NCBI GenBank assembly: GCA_050730875.1
Contig: JBOHNX010000001.1
Location: 141,827 to 205,826, forward strand
Origin: Candidatus Saccharimonadales bacterium
GTDB lineage: Bacteria > Patescibacteriota > Saccharimonadia > Saccharimonadales > EFPC-124
Length of the DNA: 64,000 nt
Direction of reading: 5' to 3'
The notes beneath the pieces are model-generated. The model was given only the letters and a program-made list of their open reading frames with translations. It was not told where the DNA came from and did no database searches. The position numbers were made by a program, and so were the translations under genes. This document shows, piece after piece, positions 2,959 to 46,333 of the stretch. Numbering within the stretch: the stretch's first letter is position 1; each line of letters opens with the position of its first letter.

Positions 2959-3873
2959 ATGTTCTGGCGAAAACAAAAAGAACCCGTTCGACAGCCACGG
3001 CTTATGGCCGGGCAAGATGATTACGTGTTTCGACGGAGCCGGACGCTAACGGGCAGCGTGTCGTCGCAGGTTACTGCAACGGCAGAAAAGCGCGGGCAAC
3101 TGAAGACCGACCGGTTAAAGTTGCACGAGCTAAAGGCGCATCGCCGGCATGTGCTGCGGCTGCTCGGCGTGGTTTTGCTGGCCTTGGGCGTGATGGTGTT
3201 TTTGCTTGCGAATTTTATTGTTTCACCACAGATTGCCAGTGCAGAACCAGGCGTTCGCCAGGCTGATGCTTCGAAGTACCACCAAGCTATTTACACGTAT
3301 TTTGGTGATCATCCGCTGGAGCGTTTTGGGTTTGCACTGAATGCCGAAGAGTTTCAGGAGCATCTTAAGCAGTCGCACGATGAGGTGCGTAGCGTAACGG
3401 TTGAGCGTGATTGGTATGGTGGTGACGTGCGTTTTATTTTGTATTTTCGGCAGCCGCTTTTGGTGTGGCGGAGTGCGGGCCAGCAGTTTTATGTAGATAA
3501 TCAGGGTGTTGCGTTTGACTACAATCATTTTGTTGAGCCGACGGTGGCGGTGGAGGACCAGTCCGGTATTACACCGGATCAAGCTTCGGGGGCAGTGGCG
3601 TCTACCCGATTCCTTGGTTTTTTGGGGCGTACGGTGGGTGCGATTAACTCCTATAACAAGGGTAAGGTCGTTGCGGTTATTATTCCGCGGTCGACTCGGC
3701 AAATTGATATTAAACTGGAGGGTCGCGATTATATTATTAAGACGCATATCGACCGCGATCCCCTGCAACAGGCTGAAGATATTGCTAATGCACTCAAGTA
3801 CTTCGATGTGCATGGTATTAAGCCGCAGTATGTTGATGTGCGGGTGGCGCACAAGGCGTTTTATAAGAATTAA
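2959..3873 (+). CDS. ftsQ: FtsQ/DivIB-like cell-division protein (single TM + POTRA-like domain)
   Basis: ORF 2917..3873; the Met at 2959 (MFWRKQ) is the more likely start. It has a TM helix (LLGVVLLALGVMVFLLANF) followed by a POTRA-like segment (VRSVTVERDWYGGDVRFILYFRQPLLVW...YVDNQGVAF). It lies after murG. Confidence 0.7.
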   Translation: MFWRKQKEPVRQPRLMAGQDDYVFRRSRTLTGSVSSQVTATAEKRGQLKTDRLKLHELKAHRRHVLRLLGVVLLALGVMVFLLANFIVSPQIASAEPGVRQADASKYHQAIYTYFGDHPLERFGFALNAEEFQEHLKQSHDEVRSVTVERDWYGGDVRFILYFRQPLLVWRSAGQQFYVDNQGVAFDYNHFVEPTVAVEDQSGITPDQASGAVASTRFLGFLGRTVGAINSYNKGKVVAVIIPRSTRQIDIKLEGRDYIIKTHIDRDPLQQAEDIANALKYFDVHGIKPQYVDVRVAHKAFYKN

Positions 3874-4828: not shown

Positions 4829-7525
4829 CTAGCGTAAGCGAAGTACAAAGTCGTTGTCTTGTTGCTCTTGTTGGGGCTGCGGCTGTTGCTGTTGTGGAGT
4901 GGGGTTTTGAGTCTTAGAACCGCCTCGTTTGCGTCCGCGCGAACGGGAACGCTTGCCGCTACCTGGCGTTGCTTGCTGGCCTGATTGTTGCTGTGGAGCG
5001 GCTGGTGCGGGCTGTGGGGGCTTTTGCGTTTGAGCGGCGGGCGCTGTTGTGGGTTGTTTTGATGGTGGCTGTGTCTGTGGGGCAGTAAATCGACCAGACG
5101 CGGCGGGGATGAGAGTTTGTTTAATCACCTTCTGAATTTCGGCCTCAACTTCTGCCCGAGGTCGCGAGTAATGGCGACGTGTGTTTTCGATAATCTGCGG
5201 CGAGTAGTCATTTTGCGCGGCTGGGAGGGTTAGGGTGGTTGCAGAGAACGCCGGTGCCTTCTCTCCCCTAATGACCATGCTAATGACAAAATGTCGGTTG
5301 TGCATTTGCATGAGGTCAGCGGCTTCAAACTGCGGTTCGAACTGCTTAGAAAGCAGTGGCGCATCGTCGGGGCTGACCCGGAAGGAAATGACAGTACCAA
5401 CGTTCCCGAATACGGCATCGCGTACGGTATCGTTCATCTGTGAAATATATTGGTTGGCTACAGTTAGGTTAAGGCCGTATTTACGTGCCTCACTTAAGAT
5501 AGTTGCAAACGAATCGGTCGCGAAGTTTTGGAATTCGTCCACGTACAGGTAGAACGGCTTGCGATCTTCGATGTGCGGAATATCAGAACGGCTCATGGCG
5601 GCCAGCTGGATTTTGGTTACTAGGAACGAGCCCAGCACGGCGGCGTTGTCTTCCCCTACTAACCCTTTGCTCAGGTTCACGATCAAAATTTTGCCTTCGT
5701 CCATGATTTTACGGATGTTAAAAGTGCTTTTTGGCTGGCCAATGATGTTACGGATGATTGGATTAGCAGTAAAGGCACCCACCTTGTTAAGCACTGGGGC
5801 AATGGCTTCGGCAGCGAATTTATCGTTCCAGCTCGCAAATTCTACCGTCCAGAACTGGCGCACTACGGCGTCATCGACATATGTTAGGACCTCGTTGCGG
5901 AACTTTTTATCGGTGAGCATGCGGGTGATATCGAGTAGTGTTGTGTTTGGATAATCCAAAAGCGCTAAGATTGTGTAGCGCAAGATGTATTCCAAACGTG
6001 GCCCCCAACTTTCGCCGAACATGCGTTTTAGGACACCAATAATTTCAGAACTAATATTGTTCTTCATGGCTGGATTGATGACTTCCATCGGGTTGAAGCC
6101 AATCGGGTATGCTGTGTCTGCTGGGTTAAAGTAGATCACATCCTTGGCGCGCGACTGAGGGATAAACCGCAGGTTGTTAATGGCAAAGTCGCCATGTGGA
6201 TCGATAATGGCGAAACCGTGGTTATGGAAGACGTCGCTGAGTGCAAACAGCTCCAACAGACCAGATTTACCAGTACCGGTTTGGCCAATGATATACACGT
6301 GACGGCCGCGGTCTGAACGGTACAGGCCAAATTGCTGGTTAATCCCGCGGAAGTTCGTTAGACCGAACGCACTTATTTCGGCATCGGCCTCGACACCGAT
6401 GACAACTGGCAGTTTTGCAGGTGGTTCGGCTGTTTTTGAGCTTGCCCAGACGATGTTCGGTGTCTCCACGTTGGTGTGTGGTAAGTGGAAGACACTGGCG
6501 AGCTCTTCGATATTTAAAATGTAGCCGCGATCAATAAAGAACCGCGCACGATATTGCGCCAGGCCGTCGGGCGAGAACGAAGAGTTCTTCATCTGGAAGC
6601 CATTCAGGTTCGTACTGTTGAACTGTTTGAACGTACCAACAATCGCTTGCATGCGCAGTCGGGCGGTTTGTTGGCTGTTACCCAAATACGTCAGCCGTAT
6701 TTTTACTTGGTAGCCTAATTTAATGCTCTTCTTCTCTACTTCGGTGATCCGGCCTTTTTCGCGTTCGCTAATTTCTGCCGGGCCACTGCTGCCTTGATTT
6801 TCTGGTGGTTTCCAGAGAGCTTCAAGCGCACGCAGCAAATAATAGCCAAGACCACCGCCGAGGGCAGCACTACTGCTCCCTCCCCCACTCTTCGCACGGG
6901 CTGTGTAGCGACTGGCTTTGCGGTGCCAGTCATCCGAAATTGGGCGCGCCAATACCTGAATCCACATTTCTTCGCCGGTTTCTTCGAGTTTGGCTAGTGT
7001 AGCGGTCACGGCTGCTAAGGGGTCAACCTCGAAGCTCTGGAATGTTTTAATCGGTAGCACTTCGTTATCGATTAATGAAAGTTCAGCGGTATGCACAACC
7101 TGCTGTTTGATATCGCGAGCTGCGTAATCTTCTTCTGCAACATGAATCTGCACAGTTGGATATTGCGCGTAAATTTGGCCTTCAACAAAGTTTTGCAGGT
7201 ATGTCGGCACCCATACGTAAAAGCGTATGCGTTTGTCGATGGCGGCGATTTCAAAGCTGATGTGTTCCTGCAAGCCGCCCTGCGTGGCAAGCTCACGCTT
7301 CGAGCGCAAAATACCGTGCAAACTGGCGAACATTTGCTCGGCTGCCAGTTCTTGCTTCTCGTTTGTACGAGGGATCTCGAGGATTAATAGGGTGTGGTCA
7401 AGATCACGAACCACCTTAGCTCGACGGTTGTTCCGAAGGGCTAAGTAACCAAGGACTGCGGCGATTGGCAGCCAGATGTACCACTTGCTCAGCAAGCCGA
7501 AAATCAACGAGAGCACCACGTCCAT
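4829..7525 (-). CDS. membrane-anchored VirD4/TraG/TraD-like (FtsK-HerA superfamily) ATPase with P/Q-rich C-terminal tail
   Basis: 898 aa. N-terminal TM helix. Walker A YIIGQTGTGKSG. Walker B-like FYLYVDEFQNF. Coupling-protein-like LNLTVANQYISQ. The last ~110 aa are low-complexity P/Q/G/R. Confidence 0.75.
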   Translation of the reverse strand: MDVVLSLIFGLLSKWYIWLPIAAVLGYLALRNNRRAKVVRDLDHTLLILEIPRTNEKQELAAEQMFASLHGILRSKRELATQGGLQEHISFEIAAIDKRIRFYVWVPTYLQNFVEGQIYAQYPTVQIHVAEEDYAARDIKQQVVHTAELSLIDNEVLPIKTFQSFEVDPLAAVTATLAKLEETGEEMWIQVLARPISDDWHRKASRYTARAKSGGGSSSAALGGGLGYYLLRALEALWKPPENQGSSGPAEISEREKGRITEVEKKSIKLGYQVKIRLTYLGNSQQTARLRMQAIVGTFKQFNSTNLNGFQMKNSSFSPDGLAQYRARFFIDRGYILNIEELASVFHLPHTNVETPNIVWASSKTAEPPAKLPVVIGVEADAEISAFGLTNFRGINQQFGLYRSDRGRHVYIIGQTGTGKSGLLELFALSDVFHNHGFAIIDPHGDFAINNLRFIPQSRAKDVIYFNPADTAYPIGFNPMEVINPAMKNNISSEIIGVLKRMFGESWGPRLEYILRYTILALLDYPNTTLLDITRMLTDKKFRNEVLTYVDDAVVRQFWTVEFASWNDKFAAEAIAPVLNKVGAFTANPIIRNIIGQPKSTFNIRKIMDEGKILIVNLSKGLVGEDNAAVLGSFLVTKIQLAAMSRSDIPHIEDRKPFYLYVDEFQNFATDSFATILSEARKYGLNLTVANQYISQMNDTVRDAVFGNVGTVISFRVSPDDAPLLSKQFEPQFEAADLMQMHNRHFVISMVIRGEKAPAFSATTLTLPAAQNDYSPQIIENTRRHYSRPRAEVEAEIQKVIKQTLIPAASGRFTAPQTQPPSKQPTTAPAAQTQKPPQPAPAAPQQQSGQQATPGSGKRSRSRGRKRGGSKTQNPTPQQQQPQPQQEQQDNDFVLRLR

Positions 7526-7597: not shown

Positions 7598-8647
7598 CTA
7601 TTCTTTGTCTTCTTCTGCCAGTGCATATGTCGCCTTAGCCACCCGCTTAAAGCGCTGTTTGCCCTGGAGGTTGAGCAAGATAGTCGTTTCTTTCACCTGA
7701 CGGTGCTTGAGGACTCGACGAACAATTTCATCACGGTGCAATGGACCACCCTCTTTTTTGAGGATGTCGGTAATGATGTCGGCAACGGTACCCTTCTTAA
7801 AGCCCCAATCCTTGAGTGCGTAAATACCACGGCCAATCAACACAAAACGGCTGTCTTTAATGAGCTCGTTGTGAATAGCCTGGGTTGTAACATCTTTACG
7901 GCGGAAATCAGACTCTTTAATTGACTTCGCGATGTCGCTAAAGTGCATTGGTTTACCGTTTTCTTGTAGGACAACAAAAATTTTGTCGCGGATGTTTTTA
8001 GGGTTAACGGTTGGCCATTTAGTCAGACCCCAGTGGTCCTTAAGGTTGGCAAGCTCTTTGCTAACCTGTGCGAGCGCGCGGACGTGCGACGGGTGGTCGT
8101 GGTCAAGTTTTTGGTGCAGCTGCTCGATTGTCAGCGGTTCACCTTCTTTTTTGATGGTGCCGACAATGCTATCGACGTGCTTCTTGATTTGTGGTTCGTC
8201 GTGATATTCCTTAATGCCTACCGAGTGGTGGTAGCGGTCGCTTTCCTCGACGACAGTTAGGCGCGGTGCTAGTTCGGCAACAAATGCCACGTGAGCACGG
8301 TCGCGCTCGCTTGGCGCTTTGGCGATACGGGCTGCAAGGTCAGATACTTTGGCAACACGGCCAAGGTCATGCAAGTGACGGATAAGGTGTTTTTCGAGAG
8401 TGGTAATGTGTGGCAAGCTCTCTTCCGCGGCCAGTTTTAGGCGGATCATAATTGCCTTTTCCAGCTGGCGCACACGTTCGCGAGTAATACCAAGAAGCTC
8501 ACCAATTTGCTCGAGTGTTTCTTTGCGGTCGTACAAACCAAAACGACGCGCAATGATTTCGCGCTCTCGCTCTCGTTCTACTGTAATAAGGATATCCTTA
8601 ACAGCTGACTGTAAATCCACCGTCGCCGCTTCAGCGGTATCGCTCAT
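7598..8647 (-). CDS. sigma-70 region-4-like HTH protein fused to two HARE-HTH-like domains
   Basis: The segment REIIARRFGLYDRKETLEQIGELLGITRERVRQLEKAIMIRLK resembles sigma70 region 4. Two C-terminal modules end in DSRFVLIGRGIYALKDWG and QRFKRVAKATYALAEE, like the RpoE-delta HARE-HTH. The Met at 8647 has a GGAAAGG RBS (the ORF track starts at 8689). Confidence 0.6.
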   Translation of the reverse strand: MSDTAEAATVDLQSAVKDILITVEREREREIIARRFGLYDRKETLEQIGELLGITRERVRQLEKAIMIRLKLAAEESLPHITTLEKHLIRHLHDLGRVAKVSDLAARIAKAPSERDRAHVAFVAELAPRLTVVEESDRYHHSVGIKEYHDEPQIKKHVDSIVGTIKKEGEPLTIEQLHQKLDHDHPSHVRALAQVSKELANLKDHWGLTKWPTVNPKNIRDKIFVVLQENGKPMHFSDIAKSIKESDFRRKDVTTQAIHNELIKDSRFVLIGRGIYALKDWGFKKGTVADIITDILKKEGGPLHRDEIVRRVLKHRQVKETTILLNLQGKQRFKRVAKATYALAEEDKE

Positions 8648-8841
8648 ATAACTAACCTTTCCGGGGTTATTTTTTGCCTCAATGTTCATATTACTCTAAC
8701 ACAAATTACTATTGGTGTCAAATAACGAGGGTATAAGTTAATTATAGCATCAACTCGACGTTTTAGGTAGTCTCTGATGTGACAGTTTATAACTGTGGAT
8801 AAATAGTATAAGCGTAAGAGGTATGTAGGAAAATTATATAG

Positions 8842-9253
8842 AAAACGGGCTCTCGCGGTTGCAAGAGCCCTTATGGAGGGATGGCACCGGCCTAGGAAAC
8901 GCAGGCGGGCTCGGTCTCCCGAGGTGCGTACATCTAGGCCGGTGCCTGGCGTCGGCTGCAGTCTCCCTCAAGCCTGCCGACGCCGCGGTTCTCGTCGTCC
9001 CAATGGGCCCGAACATGACGAGAACCAGTGAGGCTGCCCATGAGTCCCCCCAGGCCCCAAGACAACCTCACGAAAGGACCACGCCGCAACGCTCGGGGGT
9101 GCAGCTGCGGCGTGGTCCAGCCTTTAGCCCACCGTAGCGCGCCGCGTCCCTGGGGAGGCCGTGCCTTCCGGATGAAGGTACGTCGCGTACGCTACGGTGG
9201 GGGCTTGTATCATTCGGCTGATTGCAGCCGAACAAGTTCACTATTAAGGTGTA
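8842..9253. ncRNA. unassigned GC-rich highly structured element (candidate ncRNA, strand unresolved)
   Basis: Seven or more long helices: 8883-8895/8934-8946, 8948-8956/8976-8984, 8987-8998/9015-9026, 9028-9033/9066-9071, 9076-9087/9107-9118, 9128-9139/9190-9201 and 9161-9168/9174-9181. A possible pseudoknot pairs 9048-9054 with 9149-9155. Two G.U pairs favour the + strand. A promoter (TTGATG-17-TATTAT, 9260-9288) and a terminator hairpin with U run (8847-8870) favour the - strand. No credible ORF. Confidence 0.55.
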
Positions 9254-9301
9254 CTATAAATAATAACTTAGTTTAGTAATTTCATCAACAGACCACCTCT
9301 G

Positions 9302-11602
9302 TTATTTGCGGGTGCGACGAGAACGAGCACTCTTGGCTGGCGCTTTGGCGAGGAGTTCTTTGCATTGCGCTAATGTGAGTTGCGCTGGTTCGATGTCTTT
9401 TGGCACTTTGACATTCTTTTTGCCATCGGTGATGTAAGGACCAAAGCGGCCGTTGAGGACTCTAATCCCCTCTTCACTGAAGTCGTGGATGGTCATTTTG
9501 GCACGTTTTTCGGCGTCTTCGGCTAAGAGCTGTTTAGCGGTTGCAAGGTCTATGGTCAGAGGGTCGTGCCCCTTAATTGAGACGTAACGTTTAGCGACGC
9601 GAACGTATGGTCCGAAACGACCAATGTTAGCCTCGATTTCTTCGTTGTTGTCGGTCAGGCCAACGACTCGGGGCAATTTAAGCAATTCGAGTGCTTGTTC
9701 GAGCGTAATTGTGTCGAGTGAGATTTCGGGCGGAATGGTAGCGAAGGTTGGTTTTTCTTCCTCCTCAGCTTCCCCTACCTGTACCATGGGGCCGTAGCGG
9801 CCAAAGCGGGCAGATACTTTACGACCGGTTTTGGGATCGGTACCAAGGGTTCGAGATTGCATAGCCTCGGCACGACTGACGCCTTCAGACTTTTCGACTG
9901 TTTTATGGAATGGGTCGTAGAATTCTTTAAGCATTTGCTGCCACGCTAGTTTGCCATCGGCGATGCCATCGAACTCTTCTTCGACTGTTGCGGTGAAGTC
10001 GTAGTCGATGATGTGTGGGAAGTGCAGTACCAAGAAGTCGGTTACGACTTTGCCGATGTCGGTGGGTACTAACTTGCCCTTATCGGTAGGAATTGGCTCC
10101 ATGGCCTGCTTGCGCTCAACTGCGCTAGCAGCTAGTGACAGGCGCACCACTTCCCGCTCGCCGCCAACGACGTCGGCTTTTTCAACATAGCCGCGATCTT
10201 GGATGGTGCTGATAGTTGGCGCGTAGGTACTTGGACGTCCAATGCCGAGTTCTTCGAGTTTGCGTACCAGGCTAGCTTCGGTGTAACGTGCGGGTGCCCT
10301 GGCGTAGGTCTGTTCGGCTTCGGCACTAACCAAATTGAGTTTGTCGCCGGTTTTTACCTCTGGCAATAAGCCTTCTTCTTTGGCTTCTTTACCTTCGGCA
10401 TAGACTTTTAAGAAACCGGGGAATTCGACAATCTCGCCCTTGGCTTCCAGCACGTCTTTGCTTTCGCTTAGGCCAATGGTGATAGTAGTTTTTTCGATCT
10501 TGGCTGGCGCCATTTGCGATGCGACGCTGCGCTTCCAAATAAGTTCGTAGAGTTTTTGTTGCTGGGCGTCATCGCCGGCTTGGCGGACGCTGGCGTTAGT
10601 GGGGCGAATAGCTTCGTGAGCTTCTTGGGCGCCGGCACTTTTGGTCGTGAATTTTCGGGTTTGCAGGTAGTTTTCGCCATACTCTTTTTTAATGAGCTCG
10701 GCCATAGCGCCAATTGCCAGGCTGCTGAGGTTAACCGAGTCGGTACGCATGTAGGTGATGTGACCATTTTCGTACAAGCGCTGTGCGAGCATCATAGTTT
10801 GCTTTGGTGAAAAACCAAGTCGGCGCGATGCTTCTTGTTGCAGTGTGCTGGTGGTAAACGGTGCGCTTGGGCTGCGCGTACCAGGCGTTTTTTCAACGTT
10901 GGCGATGCTGCATTCGCTCTTAACAAGTGCTTCGAGGAATGCCTGAGCTTCTGCCTCGCTTTCGTATTTAACCGGTGCCTCTGCTTTCAATTCCGTGCCG
11001 TCTTCAAGTGTCAGAAGTGCATTTACTTTAAAGCTGGTCTTGGCTTCGAAACCTTCAATCTCGCGTTCGCGCTCAACAATTAAACGCACTGCCACAGATT
11101 GCACACGGCCAGCGCTTAAACCTGTGCGGACTTTTTTCCAGAGGACCGGGCTCAGTTCGTACCCCACAATGCGGTCTAAAATACGACGCGCTTGTTGCGC
11201 GTCTACTAATTTAAGGTCAATGCTGCGAGGATTCTTTACCGCCGCTTCGATTGCCGGTTTGGTAATTTCATGAAAGACAATGCGCTTTGTGTTTTCGGGT
11301 TTGAGCTTCAGCGCTTCGCTTAAATGCCAAGCAATTGCTTCCCCTTCGCGGTCTTCATCGCTTGCGAGCCAGATGATATCGGCAGTTTTAGCTGCAGCGC
11401 GCAGTTCGGCAACCGTTTTCTTTTTATCTGGGCTTACTTCGTACTTTGGTTCGAAATTATTGGCGATATCAACGCTCATCCCCTTTTTAGGAAGGTCGCG
11501 GATGTGCCCAAAGCTGCTTTTAACGACAAAATCCTTGCCTAAATACTTGGCAATGGTTTTGGCTTTGGCCGGTGACTCTACAATGACTAGGTTCTTGCTC
11601 AT
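9302..11602 (-). CDS. topA: DNA topoisomerase I
   Basis: Toprim start MSKNLVIVESPAKAKTI...GHIRDLP. Also has SDEDREGEAI, a catalytic-region YITYMRTDS motif, and a C-terminal repeated RFGPY module. The likely start is 11602 (the ORF track starts at 11656). Confidence 0.95.
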   Translation of the reverse strand: MSKNLVIVESPAKAKTIAKYLGKDFVVKSSFGHIRDLPKKGMSVDIANNFEPKYEVSPDKKKTVAELRAAAKTADIIWLASDEDREGEAIAWHLSEALKLKPENTKRIVFHEITKPAIEAAVKNPRSIDLKLVDAQQARRILDRIVGYELSPVLWKKVRTGLSAGRVQSVAVRLIVEREREIEGFEAKTSFKVNALLTLEDGTELKAEAPVKYESEAEAQAFLEALVKSECSIANVEKTPGTRSPSAPFTTSTLQQEASRRLGFSPKQTMMLAQRLYENGHITYMRTDSVNLSSLAIGAMAELIKKEYGENYLQTRKFTTKSAGAQEAHEAIRPTNASVRQAGDDAQQQKLYELIWKRSVASQMAPAKIEKTTITIGLSESKDVLEAKGEIVEFPGFLKVYAEGKEAKEEGLLPEVKTGDKLNLVSAEAEQTYARAPARYTEASLVRKLEELGIGRPSTYAPTISTIQDRGYVEKADVVGGEREVVRLSLAASAVERKQAMEPIPTDKGKLVPTDIGKVVTDFLVLHFPHIIDYDFTATVEEEFDGIADGKLAWQQMLKEFYDPFHKTVEKSEGVSRAEAMQSRTLGTDPKTGRKVSARFGRYGPMVQVGEAEEEEKPTFATIPPEISLDTITLEQALELLKLPRVVGLTDNNEEIEANIGRFGPYVRVAKRYVSIKGHDPLTIDLATAKQLLAEDAEKRAKMTIHDFSEEGIRVLNGRFGPYITDGKKNVKVPKDIEPAQLTLAQCKELLAKAPAKSARSRRTRK

Positions 11603-11698
11603 GCTTGTTCGTTGGTTTCGATGCCTTATGGTACTGACTGTTCTATAAGAATGCAAGTAAGTTTTTATGAAAACTGTAAGATATTAGCGACATAGGTC

Positions 11699-11727: not shown

Positions 11728-11733
11728 ACTAAG

Positions 11734-12066
11734 ACAGCCGGAGTATATGTAGGACCTACATACACTCCGCGAACCTCTCGTTTGCGCTCTCCCTCGCGCA
11801 GGCGAAAACAAACATCCTCTCTATGGAAGAAGGCGGTCATGGACCCGGGTTTGGAGGGTTTCCTCCGACAAACAATGAATGGTAGTTGGCTTTTCAACAA
11901 ACCGACTACGCCTTCCCCTACTACTCCCACCGACGAGCCACCCACTCGCCAGCCCACTCGTCCTCAGGATGGGGTTCGGGCGGGCGGCCCACGTCGACTC
12001 ATCGCGTGGTGAGGAGCCCGGTTGGGGTGGAGTTCTTCATTGGACTCCACCCTGCCGGGTTTTTTA
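11734..12066 (+). ncRNA. orphan ~330-nt transcription unit: structured RNA or mRNA for a 57-aa P/T-rich peptide
   Basis: Promoter at 11699-11727. Strong intrinsic terminator at 12017-12059 followed by T6. Hairpins at 11740-11753/11755-11768 and 11882-11889/11902-11909 (the latter has a U.G pair valid only on +). C-rich tract at 11910-11965. A possible ORF at 11839..12012 has a weak AAGG RBS. Confidence 0.5.
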
Positions 12067-12148
12067 TTTGCAAGGATAAGCATTTATTGACACCTTGGCC
12101 AACCAGGAGTAAACCATAGATACTACAGCAGCGACCAGGAGTATACAC

Positions 12149-12415
12149 GTGGAAGAAGACGGCTATAACGGCAACCCAGTTTGGACAGAAGCAACTATTG
12201 AGCCCCCGAAAGGACAAGCGATGTACGATATGGTGGCAGATGCATGCCACGGAAACCGACGCAGCAATGGTGAGGTACGGTTTGACATTTTCGATGAAAA
12301 AGGGTGTGAAGTGAGAGGCTTTTGTTTAAGGGCACTTAAGTCAGCGGCACGATTTATAGATGAGAAACCTAAGGCTCATTCGGAGATTCTCCGGCGAGAG
12401 CATCGCAGATACTAA
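12149..12415 (+). CDS. hypothetical protein (88 aa, GTG start)
   Basis: An AGGAG RBS lies 7 nt upstream of the GTG. No recognisable domain. Its 3' end overlaps the dprA stop by 4 nt (convergent). Confidence 0.4.
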   Translation: MEEDGYNGNPVWTEATIEPPKGQAMYDMVADACHGNRRSNGEVRFDIFDEKGCEVRGFCLRALKSAARFIDEKPKAHSEILRREHRRY

Positions 12416-13272
12416 CGCAGCGTCCACTGGTTGCCACCCAACGCGCGGATTTTGCCAGTTACCTCTAGCATAGTGAGTGTTTGACTGAATGCTGCTGGCG
12501 TGAGTTTGCTTTGCACCTGTAGCTCTATTCCGTCACGTGTGCCGCTGGCAATCAAGGTAAGAATTGCTTGTTCTTCGGCGGTATTGCCTATTGGTAGTGT
12601 CGCCTGATTTTTTGGTTCGGTTAAACCAAGCTCGTGCAAGATGTCGCTGACGTCGGTTATTGGCCGGGCGCCCATTTTTATCAGGTTATTACAGCCTTCG
12701 CTCATGGGATTGGTAATGTTGCCGGGCACGGCCATGACCGGCTTACCCTGTTCTAGTGCAAACCCGGCAGTGTGCATGGTGCCGCTTTTGGCGGCAGCCT
12801 CTACGACAAGTAAACCATCGCTAATGCCAGATACAATGCGATTACGGGCTATGAAGTTAGCAGGATAAGTCGTGGTGCCTGGCTCGTATTCGCTTAAAAG
12901 CGCGCCGCCGCTTTCCATGATGCGCTGAGCCAACTTGCGATGAGATGCGGGGTAAATTTCGGTTACACTGCTTGGTAAAACCGCTATTGTTGTACCGCCG
13001 GCATCGAGCGCTGCTTGGTGGGCAATGGCATCGATACCGAGGGCTAACCCACTGACAACTACGACTCCCCTGCTCGCTAGCTCATACGCTAGCCGGTAGC
13101 CAATCTCTTTGCCGTACGGACTTGGTCTGCGGGTGCCAACAATTGCAATGGTTGGAATTCGGGTTTGAGGTAATTTTCCCAACAACCATAATCTTTTTGG
13201 ATAATTTGCAATATTTTTTGTAATCTGGAGAAATTCACTCTCATCTGGCGTTGTTTTATTGATTTTATGCAT
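12412..13272 (-). CDS. dprA: DNA processing protein DprA (Smf)
   Basis: DprA Rossmann-like core: VVSGLALGIDAIAHQAALDAGGTTIAVLPSS...SGGALLSEY...FIARNRIVSG. Confidence 0.9.
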   Translation of the reverse strand: MHKINKTTPDESEFLQITKNIANYPKRLWLLGKLPQTRIPTIAIVGTRRPSPYGKEIGYRLAYELASRGVVVVSGLALGIDAIAHQAALDAGGTTIAVLPSSVTEIYPASHRKLAQRIMESGGALLSEYEPGTTTYPANFIARNRIVSGISDGLLVVEAAAKSGTMHTAGFALEQGKPVMAVPGNITNPMSEGCNNLIKMGARPITDVSDILHELGLTEPKNQATLPIGNTAEEQAILTLIASGTRDGIELQVQSKLTPAAFSQTLTMLEVTGKIRALGGNQWTLR

Positions 13273-13290
13273 TTTTTATGTAGAAAAGTA

Positions 13291-13319
13291 TTGACACAAA
13301 CGAGCAGAAATGTTAAATT
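13291..13319 (+). promoter_or_regulatory. sigma70-type promoter (TTGACA-17 nt-TAAATT with TGT extended -10)
   Basis: TTGACA at 13291-13296 and TAAATT at 13314-13319. It is divergent from dprA. Confidence 0.55.
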
Positions 13320-13325
13320 ATCGCA

Positions 13326-13618
13326 TGGTGAACCTTTAAGAGGTTTCATCGCACCTTATACCCCCAAATTCTAACATTTACTACTTCGGTAGTGAATAGA
13401 GTTAGATTGCATGCAACGTGCGTCTTAAAGTTTCTACCCTCCACTTTAATCGCATCTTGATCTGAAATAAGATCATCAACATGCGTTGCGTGCAAACTAA
13501 TCCCTTTAACCGGCGGACCTCTTGTATTTTGTGAGGTGGGTCACGCTAATGCCCGAACGGGTGGGTTGAAGGGTAAAACGGCGCCAGGTGATGCCCACCC
13601 TTACCTGGCGCCTTTTTA
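13326..13618 (+). ncRNA. orphan ~290-nt structured RNA, unassigned
   Basis: Bounded by a promoter at 13291-13319 and a terminator at 13580-13589/13603-13612 plus T5. A 13-14 bp helix (13408-13421/13483-13496) has three U.G/G.U pairs that are valid only on +. It encloses two hairpins, giving a 3-way junction. A UUCG-capped hairpin lies at about 13366-13406. No ORF. Confidence 0.6.
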
Positions 13619-13634
13619 TTTGGACTAGTCTTAG

Positions 13635-13663
13635 TTGACAAAAGTGCAATTAATTGATATAGT
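13635..13663 (+). promoter_or_regulatory. consensus-like sigma70 promoter (TTGACA-17 nt-TATAGT)
   Basis: TTGACA at 13635-13640 and TATAGT at 13658-13663. It lies upstream of CDS 13758. Confidence 0.6.
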
Positions 13664-13757
13664 ATTGCTATGTTCTCTTGCAGTTGTTACAAGAAATTGC
13701 ACCATACATCGTCGCCTCGAGCAACCGCTCGGCGACATCGAGACAGAGGAGAATTAG

Positions 13758-14060
13758 ATGTCTGTCCAACTCCAGAAGCTTGCATTCAAGCTGGCCATCG
13801 GTTTTAGCCTGATGGTTTCGATGGCGATCTTCCTGCTGGTCTTCTCCCGCCTTCTGCACTGGAGCGTTGTGTGGGTGATCACTATCTTTGTGACCGTGCT
13901 TTTCGTCGGCGCCTATATTTTCTTCGCCGCCGTGGTGGAGGTTGCAGCTCGCCTGCGCTTCAATCCGGAGATGTTCGAAAAGAGGTCAAAAACTGATCTA
14001 TGCACCGGGTACGGCGGGCGCAGAGCTCATCTCCTCTGTCTCCCGCAACTAGAATTCTGA
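13758..14060 (+). CDS. small membrane protein (2 predicted TM helices)
   Basis: 100-aa ORF with a GAGGAG RBS 7 nt upstream. Two long hydrophobic segments. It has its own promoter. Confidence 0.6.
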   Translation: MSVQLQKLAFKLAIGFSLMVSMAIFLLVFSRLLHWSVVWVITIFVTVLFVGAYIFFAAVVEVAARLRFNPEMFEKRSKTDLCTGYGGRRAHLLCLPQLEF

Positions 14061-14084: not shown

Positions 14085-14639
14085 CTAAACTTTATGCGTG
14101 TCGTGCGGGAAATCGCCAGCGGCGAATTTGTGCACGAGCTCGGCTACCTTTGGTGCCAGATCTTTTTGAAGTGTTTCGGATTCTTCTTTGCCTAGTCTAC
14201 TCAACACAAAATCTGCAGCGTCATTTCTAGGTGTGTGTTCGTTTGCAATGCCTATGCGGATGCGCGCGTACTCGCTGCCAATGTGCTGGCTGATGCTTTT
14301 TATGCCGTTGTTACCGGCGTCGCTGCCCCCTACTCGGGTGCGAACGGTGCCAAATGACAGGGCTAGCTCGTCGTGAATAACCAGGACGTCAGCGGCGCTT
14401 AGTTTGTAAAAATCCATGACTGCGCGCACGGTTTCGCCCGAAAGGTTATAGTAGGTTGTTGGTTTTACGAGCAGAATTTTATCGGATTTGAGTTCGGCGA
14501 TGTGCGCCTTAAATTTGTCCTTTTTAGTCCACTCTGCACCATGCACTGTGGCGATGATATCGCACATGGCAAAGCCGACGTTGTGGCGCGTGCCGTCAAA
14601 ATGGGCGCCTAAGTTACCGAGGCCGACGATTAGCTTCAT
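14085..14639 (-). CDS. pth: peptidyl-tRNA hydrolase
   Basis: [11 protein letters not shown]...TRHNVGF...GGSDAGNNGIKSI are typical Pth motifs. Confidence 0.92.
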   Translation of the reverse strand: MKLIVGLGNLGAHFDGTRHNVGFAMCDIIATVHGAEWTKKDKFKAHIAELKSDKILLVKPTTYYNLSGETVRAVMDFYKLSAADVLVIHDELALSFGTVRTRVGGSDAGNNGIKSISQHIGSEYARIRIGIANEHTPRNDAADFVLSRLGKEESETLQKDLAPKVAELVHKFAAGDFPHDTHKV

Positions 14640-15960
14640 CTCGCCTTCCCTTCTCTTCGCGGAAACTGAACTTTATTGTTGTGCCAGTGTAATCGAACCG
14701 TTCGCGCATGGCGCGTTCTAAGTAGCGTTTGTAAGACCAGTGCAAATAGCGCAGGTTGCTGCCAAATACTACAAACCACGGTGGATTTGTGTCGGTTTGC
14801 ACCATGTAACGCAGCTTGGGGTGCGTATTTTTGAGGCCAGCTGGTGGATGGCTGTGGACGCACTGTTGCAGGATTTTGTTGAGCTCGGCAGTTTTGAGTT
14901 CTTGGCGGCGGCGTTCGTCAATTTCGGATGCAAGGTCGAAAATTTTAGCGACGTTTTGTCCGGTCACGGCGCTGGTGAAAATAAGTGGCGCCCATGGCAC
15001 ATGCTGGAAGTCAAAATGCAGTTTCTTGGCGATTTCATCGCGCGAGTACGGCGTTTTGTCGTCGAGTGTGTCCCATTTGCTTATAACGATCACGATACCT
15101 TTGCCGGCTTCTTTAATAATGCCGGCGATTTTTTGGTCGAGGGCGGTGCTGAGCTCGTTCACGTCCATCAAAAGTAAACAAATGTCAGCTTGCTCGATGG
15201 CTTGCAGGCTACGCAGGACGCTGAATTTTTCGATGCCGACTTCAATTTTGCCGCTACGGCGGATACCGGCAGTGTCGAGCAGTTCTACATCGCGTTGATG
15301 GTAGCGCACACGCACGCGGTTTACATCGCGCGTGGTGCCCGCAACATCGGCCACAATTGCTTGCTGCTTGCCAGCCAAAGTGTTAAATAAGTACGATTTA
15401 CCGACGTTTGGGCGGCCGATCAGCGCAATGCGTAGAACATTGTCGTCCGGGATATCTTTTTTAGATGGAACGTCGGCTGCGATAGCTTCTAACAGTTCAT
15501 CTACGCCAGTGCTGTGCTCGGCTGAGGTACGGTAAATGTGCTTAATGCCGAGTTTCAAAAAGTCTTCGGTTGGCAGCGCGTCGGCTTTGTCGGTTTTGTT
15601 AAGCACCAGCTTAACCACCTTTTTAGATTTGAGCGCTTTTTTAGCAACGGTGCGGTCTTGGTCGGTCACCATGGTGGTGGCATCGACCACAACTAAAATA
15701 AGGTCAGCGGCGGCGCTGGCCTCTTCAATCTGTTCTTGAATGGTTGCTTCAAACTGGTCTTCGGGGTCCTTTAGACCCGCGGTGTCGACCAGCCAGAAGT
15801 TACGATCTTTAAAACCAACTTTACCAACCACCGGGTCGCGGGTAGTACCAGCTTCACGCGCAACAATCGCCTGCTGGTAGCCAACAAGGCGGTTAAACAA
15901 GCTAGATTTGCCAACGTTGGTCTGGCCAACAATAGCGACGGTCGGAAGTCGTTTACTCAT
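14614..15960 (-). CDS. der: ribosome-associated GTPase Der/EngA (two GTPase domains + KH-like)
   Basis: Two G-domains: [16 protein letters not shown]...DTAG, and [15 protein letters not shown]...DTAG...SKWD. Confidence 0.95.
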
Positions 15961-16383: not shown

Positions 16384-17082
16384 TTATGGATTGCTGATTT
16401 CTTTGATTGAGCCCGGCTTCATGTTCTGGATGTGGTAATTGCCAAACTGGATACGGTGTAAACGTGTAACCTCGTAACCGAGTGCGCGGAAGGTGCGGCG
16501 GATTTGGCGGTTGCGGCCCTCACTCATAGTGACGAGCCACTTGGTATCGTCGCCTTCGCGTTGGCGGTCTAACTGCAGCCTACTAGGGCCGTCGTCTAGC
16601 TGCACGCCCATCTCACCTATCATTTGCCGGTGCAGGGGCTGTAGCGGCGCATCCAAGCTAACCTCGTACTTTTTGACCTTTTTAAATTTCGGATGCGTTA
16701 GTTGGTAGGCCAGGTCACCGTCGTTGGTGAGCAACATAATACCCGACGTATCTTTATCGAGCCGGCCAACGGGCTTGAGGTGGTGGTATTTTTCTGATAA
16801 CAAGCTGTAAATTGTCGGTGTGTCACCTTGTTGCCGCCGGCTAGAGACATAACCGGTTGGTTTATGAAAAAGCACATATAAAAACTGGGGTGCCTCAGCG
16901 CTATTTAAGACTTTGCCCTTTACGGCAACTTCGTCGCCGGGCCAAACGCGCGCGCCAAGTTCGGGCTTTTCGCCATTAACGCTGACTTTGCCTTTTTCAA
17001 TAAGCTCATCTGCCGCTCGGCGACCGATGCTTAAACGTTGCGCTAAAAATTTATTCAACCGTACAGGTTCGGGTGTTGTCAT
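16384..17082 (-). CDS. pseudouridine synthase, RsuA/RluB family (S4 + catalytic domain)
   Basis: N-terminal S4-like RLNKFLAQRLSIGRRAADELI. Catalytic GRLDKDTSGIMLLTNDG. Confidence 0.88.
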   Translation of the reverse strand: MTTPEPVRLNKFLAQRLSIGRRAADELIEKGKVSVNGEKPELGARVWPGDEVAVKGKVLNSAEAPQFLYVLFHKPTGYVSSRRQQGDTPTIYSLLSEKYHHLKPVGRLDKDTSGIMLLTNDGDLAYQLTHPKFKKVKKYEVSLDAPLQPLHRQMIGEMGVQLDDGPSRLQLDRQREGDDTKWLVTMSEGRNRQIRRTFRALGYEVTRLHRIQFGNYHIQNMKPGSIKEISNP

Positions 17083-19955: not shown

Positions 19956-20495
19956 TTACTGCTGCGCGGTGTTGTTCTGCTCCCATGGCGGGATCCATGC
20001 GTGCAGACGGAACCAGAACCGTGGCACGTTCTGCAGGTAGAGGGTGTACCGGTCAGGGAACTTCTCTCGAAGCTCAGGTTCCTCCTGGGTGAGGATGAGC
20101 CAGAGCTGGAAGATGATGAAGGCGATCAGCTCAAACACGACCCACAACGAGCCGGTCCAGAGTATCCACCCCAGCAGAATCAGGGCAACACCCGTGATCA
20201 TGGGGTTGCGCGAGTAGCGGTACAACCCCTCACAAACGAACTCTGTGATTGCATCCCACGGACCGAGTGACTCGCCTCGCCTGGTGAACGAAGCGATCGT
20301 CGTGATGAGCAGGAAGATCCCCATGATGAAGCTTGCCACTGTCACGATGCTGAGTACAACCCAGACAAGGCCAGTGGTGCCCCAAAGCCATCCCCACCAC
20401 CCGGCCGTCAGCATGCTTCCCCATGCAAGTAGTGGCGGTACTACACCAGCCACCATGATCGGCAATAGCAGTGCCCGTCTTTGCTTGCTGTTCAT
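19956..20495 (-). CDS. ICMT/PEMT-like membrane methyltransferase family protein
   Basis: C-terminal EGLYRYSRNPMITGVALILLGW matches the isoprenylcysteine/phospholipid methyltransferase fold. A GGAGGG RBS precedes the Met at 20495. Codons are visibly GC3-rich. Confidence 0.6.
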   Translation of the reverse strand: MNSKQRRALLLPIMVAGVVPPLLAWGSMLTAGWWGWLWGTTGLVWVVLSIVTVASFIMGIFLLITTIASFTRRGESLGPWDAITEFVCEGLYRYSRNPMITGVALILLGWILWTGSLWVVFELIAFIIFQLWLILTQEEPELREKFPDRYTLYLQNVPRFWFRLHAWIPPWEQNNTAQQ

Positions 20496-45046: not shown

Positions 45047-46333
45047 ATGAAAATTGGCATTTTTACAGATACATATCGGCCGTCAGTCAATGGCGTCGTC
45101 TACGTCACAGAGATCCTGCGGCGTAACTTTGAGGCGCTGGGACACGAAGTATATATTTTTGCGCCCGCCGCAACATTAAGCAGCAAGAGCGACGATGACC
45201 ACATTATTCGCTTCCCCGCCATTTCTGGTGTCGTGTATGAAGAAAGCAATCTCTCGCTCTTCTTTCCGCCAATTGTCCTCAAACGGATTAAAGAGCTGGA
45301 TTTAGATGTCTTTCATTTTATGGTACCAGGCCCAGTTGGTCTAATGGCAATTTACGCCGCGCACAAGCTTAACAAGCCGGTCGTTGCCGAATACTGCACT
45401 GATTACTTTGAATATGTCGAACATTACCCAAGTGCTATCCCAGGTATTATCGCTCTTGGGCTGACGCTTCCCTTCACATTCAAGGTGTCGCCAAGCGAGC
45501 TGCTGAGCATGCTAAAAGCTGGCCGGCCACGTATTGGCCTGGGCAAATGGAGCCAGGGGCTGGTTAAAAACCTGCTGACAGTTATTCATAGCCACTGCGA
45601 CGCCGTTATTGCACATTCGCGTAAAAGCGCCCATCAGTTAGAAAGCTGGCAGAGCGAAAATGATCGTTATCCTATTCATATCATTCCAACCGGCGTCGAT
45701 CCTTTACCGCAACCCAACAAGGCTGAGCTTCTTGCATTTAAACAGCAATGGGGTATCGGGCCGCAAGATGAAGTGGTGGTGTCGATTAGCCGCCTGAGCT
45801 CCGAGAAAAATCTTGATATGTTGATCGATATGATCGCCGAATTGGTGAAAGAGCGCCCCAATGCCAAGCTGATGTACGTGGGCGACTTTGACTACCGCCG
45901 GGTTTTGGAAGAAAAGGCGCAAAAATCGCCTGTAGCTGATCGCATTATCTTTACCGGAAAACTACCGCGCGAAACGCTTGGTGTTGTCCACGCGAGTGCT
46001 AAGGTACTGGCGTTCCCATCTTTAACAGATACCCAGGGGCTGGTTCTACACGAAGCGGCACAATCGGGCTTGCCAATTGTGATGATTGACCAAGAAGTGA
46101 CCGAAGTTGTGCACAATGGCGAAAACGGCTACTTCTGCCAAAACGATCCGGCCGATATGGCTGCAAAAGTCGCGGCAGTTCTAGCCGACGGCGAAAAGTA
46201 CGAGCGCATGAGCAAAGCTAGCCGCAAAATTGCCAAAGAATTCTCAGAACAGAAACAATGTGAAGAAATAATAGAAATTTATGAACGAATTAGCGCCAAA
46301 ACTACATCTGAAGCGGCACAGCTTTCAGTATAA
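45047..46333 (+). CDS. GT4-family glycosyltransferase
   Basis: MKIGIFTDTYRPSVNGV N-terminus. C-terminal FPSLTDTQGLVLHEAAQSGLPIV. Confidence 0.8.
   Translation: MKIGIFTDTYRPSVNGVVYVTEILRRNFEALGHEVYIFAPAATLSSKSDDDHIIRFPAISGVVYEESNLSLFFPPIVLKRIKELDLDVFHFMVPGPVGLMAIYAAHKLNKPVVAEYCTDYFEYVEHYPSAIPGIIALGLTLPFTFKVSPSELLSMLKAGRPRIGLGKWSQGLVKNLLTVIHSHCDAVIAHSRKSAHQLESWQSENDRYPIHIIPTGVDPLPQPNKAELLAFKQQWGIGPQDEVVVSISRLSSEKNLDMLIDMIAELVKERPNAKLMYVGDFDYRRVLEEKAQKSPVADRIIFTGKLPRETLGVVHASAKVLAFPSLTDTQGLVLHEAAQSGLPIVMIDQEVTEVVHNGENGYFCQNDPADMAAKVAAVLADGEKYERMSKASRKIAKEFSEQKQCEEIIEIYERISAKTTSEAAQLSV

Follow-up and report, generated by a model that had tools for sequence, protein, structure and literature searches.

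Positions 13326–13617 (+) of the window, by which we mean the whole 64,000-nt stretch of a Candidatus Saccharimonadales genome analysed here, are a stand-alone gene for a structured non-coding RNA (ncRNA) of ~290 nt. The RNA lies directly upstream of dprA on the opposite strand; the DprA encoded here shows 100% identity to a protein from a metagenome-assembled genome of Candidatus Saccharimonadales. The RNA is the local member of an undescribed family that is specific to Saccharibacteria (Saccharimonadia, Patescibacteria/Candidate Phyla Radiation, CPR). We are nearly certain that the gene is real and conserved and that its product is a structured ncRNA belonging to a new family. The literature on Saccharibacteria and the CPR, searchable only in part, yielded no account of an ncRNA near dprA, so a prior report is possible.

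The RNA matches no known family

The original prediction, made from the DNA letters without database searches, had called the element an orphan structured RNA, and the Rfam check bore this out, as no known family appeared at gathering or E-value thresholds. At the gathering threshold, Rfam 15 found only three tRNAs in the 64-kb window, and a permissive search (E ≤ 10) of positions 13200–13780 (a 581-nt query) gave only chance-level matches, the best being a plant microRNA model at E = 0.23. Similarly, 17 homologous loci gave nothing at the gathering threshold, and 13 further loci gave at E ≤ 5 only scattered noise of microRNA and leader type with no recurring family. We also found no conserved open reading frame (ORF); the median length of the longest ORF in the homologues is 39 aa on both strands, a value to be expected in sequence of this length. 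A small protein-coding gene was rejected on this ground and because the homologues differ by whole hairpins and compensatory pair changes.

The RNA is retained across Saccharibacteria

We collected 80 DprA loci from species-representative genomes, picked via an alignment of DprA relatives; 54 are Saccharibacteria-type and 26 are not. A single-sequence nhmmer search found the RNA at ~38 loci and a profile search at 45, always directly upstream of dprA and on the opposite strand. Three loci (L033, L041 and L045) were added by R1, a covariance model built on the 3′ domain, and by inspection we recognised the RNA in L035, L037 and, in truncated form, L032, which brings the total to ~51 of the 54 Saccharibacteria-type loci. 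The RNA was not found in L053 and L063, and L040 ends at a contig edge. Neither the nhmmer profile nor R1 detected it at any of the 26 remaining DprA loci (Chloroflexota, Bacillota and a few other lineages), and viral contigs gave no match to it. One carrier labelled 'Bacillota bacterium' (L018) has the full Saccharibacteria synteny together with the RNA, and its taxonomic label is probably wrong.

Metagenomes were scanned with the exact pattern ACCCTCCAC-N25-55-CTAAYCCCTTTAA, and at least 120 contigs match, from soil, rhizosphere, groundwater and other sources. Divergent dprA is directly upstream in 89 of 120 contigs among the matches listed, the remainder being mostly too short to judge. In four contigs among these matches (L149, L159, L172 and L197), the RNA adjoins topA and no dprA is detectable nearby; in these lineages, therefore, dprA has been lost or moved and the RNA retained. 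Hence, the RNA is linked to a syntenic block and not strictly to dprA. Its position is fixed within this block, which runs sigma-like gene, topA, dprA, RNA, pth and der. In the window the RNA is single-copy, and its signature motifs occur nowhere else in the 64 kb.

The gene has its own promoter and terminator

A sigma-70-type promoter with a TG-extended −10 box and a terminator with a 10-bp stem and T5 had been proposed for the element, and both are present (Table 1), with the proposed coordinates overall within 1–2 nt. Transcription would start near 13326. Among 111 distinct homologous upstream regions, 110 have a promoter matching at least 9 of 12 consensus positions with a 16–18-nt spacer, and 89 have a perfect TTGACA as their −35 box. 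These promoters stand at a fixed distance (29–45 nt, mostly 30–36) ahead of the first conserved segment. We assign the RNA to the + strand because G-U pairs are frequent in it and its promoter and terminator are oriented that way. Full-length members of the family measure 244–502 nt (median 354), and the length variation consists of whole inserted hairpins.

Stable fold and covarying helices

The fold of the RNA is more stable than expected by chance. The minimum free energy (MFE) of the + strand is −111.7 kcal/mol compared with −75.4 ± 4.8 kcal/mol for 200 dinucleotide shuffles (z = −7.54), none of which was as stable, whereas the − strand gave a z-score of only −3.44. From 5′ to 3′, the architecture is P1, the single-stranded segment S1, P2, P3 (enclosing P3a and an optional P3b), a linker, P4 (enclosing P5 and P6) and the terminator hairpin P7. 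The elements drawn inside and before the long helix by the original prediction all proved to be there: the helix itself with its three wobble pairs, the two hairpins that it encloses and the UUCG-capped hairpin upstream of it (13380–13393).

Comparative analysis of the dprA-upstream regions, a check that had been proposed for the element, supports P3, P4 and P7 by covariation. For the 3′ domain, an alignment of 30 genome sequences has 97.7% of its cells paired and changes on both sides at 20 of 34 pairs, and 60 distinct metagenome sequences give 96.6% and again 20 of 34; for the 5′ domain, 31 sequences give 92.5% and 18 of 25, figures that are to be read as support and not as probabilities because each alignment was fitted to its model and its sequences share ancestry. 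None of 500 shuffles reached the score in any of the three sets. Sliding one partner by 1–3 columns lowered pairing to 39–57% (3′ domain, genomes), 39–59% (3′ domain, metagenomes) and 27–43% (5′ domain). Applied to the 5′ domain by itself, MAFFT and RNAalifold gave a poor consensus, and a model with a hand-specified structure (R2) was needed.

Among the individual helices, P3 closes the junction of P3a and P3b and is paired in 97.6% of cells, with double changes at 10 of 11 pairs (31 sequences), so the wobble-containing helix of the original prediction is kept in relatives. The P3a stem has double changes at 8 of 8 pairs, yet only 76% of its cells are paired. P4 is 99.7% paired and has double changes at 4 of 10 pairs (for example, U-A to C-G or A-U), and divergent clades retain it as CCCUUCAAUU:GAUUGAAGGG and CCCUUUCAUG:CAUGAAAGGG. 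In P7, both sides change at 14 of 15 stem pairs in the genomes and at 11 of 12 pairs of the main helix in the metagenomes; for P5, the corresponding counts are 2 of 9 and 5 of 9 pairs. P1 is variable in sequence and always present as a hairpin: the segment from the transcript start to S1 has a mean of −8.8 kcal/mol compared with −3.2 kcal/mol for shuffles, and 110 of 110 homologues beat their own shuffles. P3b is missing from short-form homologues such as L008, L003 and L006. The linker between P3 and P4 reads ACUAA(C/U) in 145 of 153 sequences; the mammal-associated clade lacks it.

P2 is supported across clades, being paired in 98% of cells with no double changes within the main clade and present at the same place as AAUUUC:GAAAUU in the mammal-associated clade. 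A competing pairing of GUUAG with the linker ACUAAU could extend P3. Both CUAAC copies are nearly invariant, and we found one exception each way (L002 and L016). One metagenome contig (L088) lacks the UCUAAC arm and the loop of P2 and has GUUAG and an ACUAAC linker, which would favour the extended P3.

Table 1. Window coordinates of the RNA, its control elements and the neighbouring genes
Feature	Position	Strand	Details
topA	9302–11656	−	neighbour
dprA	12412–13272	−	neighbour, divergent from the RNA
Promoter of the RNA, sigma-70-type	13291–13319	+	−35 TTGACA 13291–96; 17-nt spacer; TG-extended −10 TAAATT 13314–19; 10/12 match
P1, 5′ hairpin	13327–13350	+	GGUGAACCUU-UAA-GAGGUUUCAUC; MFE fold
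S1, single-stranded C-rich	13350–13365	+	CGCACCUUAUACCCCC
P2	13370–13406	+	UCUAAC 13370–75 : GUUAGA 13401–06; encloses variable UUCG-capped insertion hairpin 13376–13399
P3, long helix	13407–13495	+	13407–13420 : 13482–13495, 14 bp; G-U pairs U13412-G13490, U13419-G13483, G13420-U13482
P3a hairpin	13425–13449	+	UUAAAGU...ACUUUAA; 11-nt loop UUCUACCCUCC 13432–42
S2	13435–44	+	UACCCUCCAC, carried by the P3a loop; anti-Shine-Dalgarno-like CCUCC
P3b hairpin, optional	13458–13475	+	UGAUCU-GAAAUA-AGAUCA; MFE fold
Linker P3–P4	13496–13501	+	ACUAAU
P4	13502–13573	+	CCCUUUAACC 13502–11 : GGGUUGAAGGG 13563–73; closes three-way junction with P5 and P6
P5	13512–20 : 13538–47	+	within the P4 junction
P6	13551–54 : 13559–62	+	MFE fold only
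S4, G-rich heptamer	13559–13565	+	GGGUGGG; complementary to the terminator loop
P7, intrinsic terminator	13580–13617	+	stem GGCGCCAGGU 13580–89 : ACCUGGCGCC 13603–12; U5 13613–17
S5, terminator loop	13592–13600	+	UGCCCACCC, within P7 loop GAUGCCCACCCUU 13590–13602
Promoter of the downstream ORF	13635–63	+	TTGACA-17-TATAGT
100-aa ORF	13758–14060	+	downstream neighbour of the RNA; no Pfam match
pth	14085–14639	−	neighbour
der/engA	14614–15960	−	neighbour

Three C-rich elements are nearly invariant

Three C-rich elements (S1, S2 and S5) are near-invariant in the family, and structure prediction leaves two of them, S2 and S5, exposed: in 128 distinct full-length RNAs, the predicted unpaired probability is 0.92 for S2, 0.85 for S5 and 0.56 for S1, compared with 0.36 for the whole RNA. 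S2 occurs as ACCCUCC or UACCUCC in 166 of 166 homologues, carried by the P3a loop as UACCCUCC, and has no internal partner beyond chance (longest match 4.47 nt, 4.50 nt in shuffles). S5 (GCCCACCC) is present in 161 of the 166, and its 9-mer occurs once in the 64-kb window. The S1 pattern G[C/U]ACCUU.UA(C/U)CCCC is found in 141 of 166 homologues; the mammal-associated clade retains CGCACCU, and S1 is lost in the most divergent clades. In one relative (L026, ~3570–3762, − strand), a terminator-type hairpin with the GAUGCCCACCCUU loop occurs in two tandem copies.

In the most divergent homologues (L033, L035, L037, L041 and L045), only P3 with P3a and P4 are clearly kept, and the P3a loop reads G/UCACCCUCCUUU, that is, CACCCUCCUUU. 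The textbook 3′ tail of 16S rRNA is CACCUCCUUU, and the divergent loop is the same with one extra C. In sequence, this loop is a near copy of the anti-Shine-Dalgarno (anti-SD) tail of 16S rRNA.

The terminator loop complements a conserved G-rich segment

The original prediction had pointed out that the terminator loop is complementary to upstream GGGUGGG and AAGGGU and had suggested a pseudoknot or alternative fold. The complementarity is real: the loop part CCCACCCUU (13594–13602) complements GGGUGGG (13559–65) and AAGGGU (13569–74), and it is conserved, with GGUGGG lying inside the P4 domain in 156 of 161 homologues (~97%) and the longest complement of the S5 loop averaging 6.7 nt compared with 4.6 nt in shuffles. 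The pseudoknot is unproven, however, because the loop never varies and the S4 side mutates uncompensated in one clade. S4 and S5 do not covary: the loop is invariant, and S4 is changed without compensation at 3–4 of 7 positions in 12–15 of 30 sequences (the mammal-associated clade). In that clade S4 is degenerate and GGUGGG is still found in P5. The predicted fold consumes most of GGGUGGG in P6 and P4, and the C-rich terminator loop is wholly missing in L037 and L041. A contact between S4 and S5, within one molecule or between two, is thus a hypothesis.

Possible modes of action

We favour, tentatively and without holding it to be probable, a trans-acting RNA that would pair through its C-rich loops with G-rich sites resembling Shine-Dalgarno (SD) sequences, by analogy with known regulatory RNAs. 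Two loops for which prediction indicates exposure would act in trans, that of P3a (UACCCUCC; CACCCUCCUUU in divergent clades) and that of the terminator (UGCCCACCC), and the 5′ segment CGCACCUUAUACCCCC may contribute to the pairing. Pairing of these elements with G-rich, SD-like mRNA sequences would modulate translation or stability. C-rich loops of S. aureus RNAIII (H7, H13 and H14), RsaE/RoxS and the streptococcal csRNAs pair with SD regions. Upstream of start codons in the window, GGAGG, AGGAG and GAGGG rank with the most frequent 5-mers; hence, SD-led mRNAs complementary to the loop exist.

Several points weigh against such pairing. A target search in the window matched the S2 loop (9 of 10 positions) to one ribosome-binding site only, that of a PEMT-family gene (19956–20495, − strand), which is not significant, and many genes here look leaderless, narrowing the pool of SD targets. 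The RNA is far larger and more elaborately structured than typical base-pairing small RNAs (sRNAs), and its junction sequences CCCUUUAACC and GGUUGAAGGG are as conserved as the loops; this size and these junctions suit a ribonucleoprotein (RNP) or an RNA with a tertiary fold no less well. To our knowledge, Saccharibacteria are not known to encode Hfq-type chaperones. Since the S5 loop has a conserved internal complement, S5 may be engaged in a tertiary or intermolecular contact and not in target pairing. In addition, the anti-SD likeness is short, includes one extra C and was spotted post hoc.

Many window genes have a −10-like box (TATAAT, TATACT or TACAAT) only 6–8 nt before the ATG and no SD sequence; examples precede der (15960), the genes that end at 17082, 40727 and 42007 (−) and the one at 45047 (+). 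These boxes suggest that leaderless mRNAs are widespread in the window, where other genes have SD sequences of the GGAGG type.

The main rival of the base-pairing mechanism is a decoy or scaffold RNP, in which the RNA would titrate or deliver a protein or ribosomal component that reads C-rich strands or the 16S 3′ tail; candidates are the Era KH domain, 16S 3′-end maturation factors and KhpA/B-type KH proteins, with the junctions serving as protein-binding architecture. We consider this possible, although on the whole unlikely. The 16S rRNA 3′ tail contains CACCUCCU. The likeness of the P3a loop to this tail, closest in the divergent clades (CACCCUCCUUU), counts in favour of a decoy, as do the binding of GAUCACCUCC by the Era KH domain and three exposed YACC(C/U)-type motifs. 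The high conservation of the junction sequences in an RNA of 244–502 nt, its retention across reduced genomes and the translation-related neighbours der/engA, pth and a pseudouridine synthase point the same way. However, in the loci examined no protein gene specifically co-varies or co-localises with the RNA, the neighbourhood may be mere conserved synteny, and the motif sits in a closed hairpin loop, unlike the free 3′ end of 16S rRNA.

A self-contained 'ornate' RNA (a ribozyme, a ligand-binding RNA or a homo-oligomer), in which CCCACCC:GGGUGGG would form a pseudoknot or a kissing dimer, seems improbable to us. It would account for a 7-nt complementarity between loop and junction that is far above chance (156/161; 6.7 vs 4.6 nt), for the persistence of GGUGGG in P5 where S4 degenerates and for the clustering of conserved nucleotides at junctions. 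On geometric grounds, the rigid 10–12-bp P7 stem and the short linker make an intramolecular contact awkward and would favour an intermolecular one. The uncompensated S4 changes opposite an invariant loop speak against it, however, as do the use of most of GGGUGGG by P6 and P4 in the predicted fold, the two homologues (L037 and L041) that lack the C-rich terminator loop and the lack of likeness to known ribozyme and riboswitch models.

As doubtful, in our estimate, is a bolder proposal in which the RNA is a mimic of the anti-SD tail of the ribosome, with the long helix displaying a near copy of the 16S 3′ end (CACCCUCCUUU or UACCUCC). By titrating either SD-led mRNAs or a factor recognising the 16S tail, such a mimic would shift translation between the SD-led and the many apparently leaderless mRNAs of Saccharibacteria; self-masking or dimerisation via CCCACCC/GGGUGGG could control it. 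If true, this would make the RNA the counterpart of 6S RNA in translation.

Quite unlikely is a locus-bound regulator of dprA or topA (competence or topology), acting through overlap of back-to-back promoters or, in some clades, read-through into topA. About 20 nt separate the −35 box of the RNA from the start codon of the oppositely oriented dprA, dprA is adjacent in most cases (89 of 120 metagenome contigs among the matches listed and ~51/54 genome loci), and this adjacency survives the rearrangement that puts topA downstream in the mammal-associated clade (L019–L024, L052 and others). However, the four contigs L149, L159, L172 and L197 keep the RNA by topA without a nearby dprA, promoter interference needs no 250–500-nt RNA with covarying helices and invariant loops, and the strong terminator speaks against read-through. 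As a separate observation, dprA, too, seems to be leaderless, and the −35 box of the RNA overlaps the region upstream of this gene.

We give hardly any chance to a highly diverged universal housekeeping RNA (6S, RNase P, signal recognition particle (SRP) or transfer-messenger RNA (tmRNA)) missed by Rfam, a reading that we consider largely refuted. There is precedent for such a miss, as the RNase P RNA of 10 of 35 circularised CPR genomes was found only by sub-threshold searches (PMC8172020), and our RNA, abundant throughout the clade, has a strong promoter. Nevertheless, no RNase P, 6S, SRP or tmRNA model matched at E ≤ 10 (positions 13200–13780) or E ≤ 5 (13 loci). For RNase P RNA, the P4 core GAGGAAAGUCC...ACAGAA is absent as well; for tmRNA and SRP RNA, ARAGORN found three tRNAs and no tmRNA in the window, and the SRP GGAA/AGCA motif is absent from the sequence. 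6S RNA (RF00013 and relatives) was likewise without a match at the gathering threshold, and its architecture, an end-paired rod with a central bubble, is not that of our RNA, which has independent ends in P1 and P7 and three separate helical domains. A T-box or known riboswitch aptamer was also rejected, since no Rfam model matches.

The weakest alternative, a cis-acting leader or riboswitch that would act on the downstream gene via the terminator, we give next to no chance: the RNA does end in an intrinsic terminator and has a G-rich segment complementary to the terminator loop, but this complement targets the loop and not a terminator arm and so could not be an antiterminator, and the genomic context refutes the reading. 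As the original prediction had noted in doubting a simple riboswitch, the downstream ORF has its own consensus promoter (Table 1), and tblastn found no homologue of this ORF in any related locus. Many relatives have nothing on the same strand downstream; in L001, L004 and L006, the terminator of the RNA faces the 3′ end of convergent pth, and a rearrangement of the block in the mammal-associated clade has placed topA downstream of the RNA. Hence, the downstream gene is not conserved, and the RNA is not its leader or riboswitch.

Neighbouring structured units

The original prediction had grouped the RNA with two other units at 8.8 and 11.7 kb as three of a kind clustered around topA and dprA. 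All three are strongly structured, but the other two share no similarity with the RNA and have no homologues; hence, the three are not a family. In 200 related loci, we found no homologue of the 8.8-, 11.7- and 12.1-kb units or of the spacer downstream of the RNA, and neither 8845–9245 (even at E ≤ 1) nor 11728–12064 gave an Rfam match. By this comparison, the 8.8- and 11.7-kb units are unrelated to the 13.3-kb RNA and not conserved like it.

The first unit (8845–9245, probably − strand) is a 401-nt intergenic block between a gene for a sigma-70 region 4/HARE-HTH protein and topA. It has 60–64% GC compared with ~50% locally and folds (MFE −233 kcal/mol, z = −9.85) into about seven hairpins that are long and near-perfect, with a promoter-like site at 9288–9260 and a terminator-like hairpin at 8870–8847. 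The second (11728–12064, +) lies between topA and dprA (z = −6.5) and has a TTGACA...TATAAA promoter-like site and a 13-bp terminator (12023–12054) with a T-run; a further 350-nt spacer (12061–12411) follows. In many relatives the gap between dprA and topA is only 40–100 nt. The 363-aa protein with sigma-70 region 4 and HARE-HTH domains (7598–8689, −) is syntenic with the RNA block in most relatives, and just beyond topA the window also encodes an 898-aa TrwB/TraG-like type IV coupling protein (4829–7525, −).

Significance and comparison with known systems

The genomes of Saccharibacteria and other Patescibacteria are smaller than 1 Mb and encode few regulators, and in the searchable literature we found no ncRNA described as specific to these bacteria. 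The RNA is very likely important to these epibionts because it is a class-wide gene of 250–500 nt with a near-consensus promoter, covarying helices and invariant exposed loops. Its anti-SD-like loop offers a concrete hypothesis on how translation may be controlled in organisms with both leaderless and SD-led mRNAs, and N. lyticus and S. epibionticum, which are related to the carriers, are now cultivable and transformable. An Rfam entry for the family would improve the annotation of CPR genomes.

In overall form, the RNA is comparable to S. aureus RNAIII, which is also a large multi-hairpin RNA with several C-rich loops, one of them on the terminator hairpin, and a stand-alone gene with its own promoter and terminator. 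However, the two share no sequence or structural homology and no Rfam match and belong to different phyla, and RNAIII encodes delta-haemolysin and is controlled by quorum sensing, whereas the Saccharibacteria RNA has no conserved ORF.

With RsaE/RoxS of Bacillota and with sRNAs bearing UCCC/CCCC motifs, the RNA shares conserved unpaired C-rich motifs in loops or linkers (here S2 and S5); in RsaE/RoxS these motifs are seeds against G-rich ribosome-binding sites. RsaE/RoxS are ~100–115 nt with two or three hairpins, whereas our RNA has 244–502 nt and a covarying multi-junction core; its length, the lack of an Rfam match and its confinement to Saccharibacteria led us to reject membership. Similarly, the streptococcal csRNAs share an anti-SD-like sequence and a link to competence, as they target comC and our RNA lies beside dprA. 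The csRNAs differ in being ~90–100 nt, in carrying an anti-AUG next to the anti-SD and in depending on CiaR, and the competence link of our RNA is positional only and broken in some contigs.

6S RNA is likewise of an abundant-looking, clade-wide housekeeping type, and the parallel is also conceptual, as 6S RNA mimics open promoter DNA and the loop of our RNA would mimic the 16S anti-SD tail; in contrast, our RNA has no rod or central bubble and no Rfam match, and its ends do not pair with each other. The raiA motif and OLE of Gram-positive bacteria are, like our RNA, several hundred nt long, found by comparative genomics, conserved in their junction nucleotides and without an assigned biochemical role, and the raiA motif is often near the competence gene comFC. 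They differ from it in taxon, architecture and conserved motifs, and since no covariance model matches, these and other large orphan ncRNAs of Rfam were rejected as its family. The RNA founds a new family of a general kind that is familiar, the stand-alone bacterial ncRNA with C-rich loops, and what is unusual about it is its size, its clade-wide retention in minimal genomes and its anti-SD-like loop.

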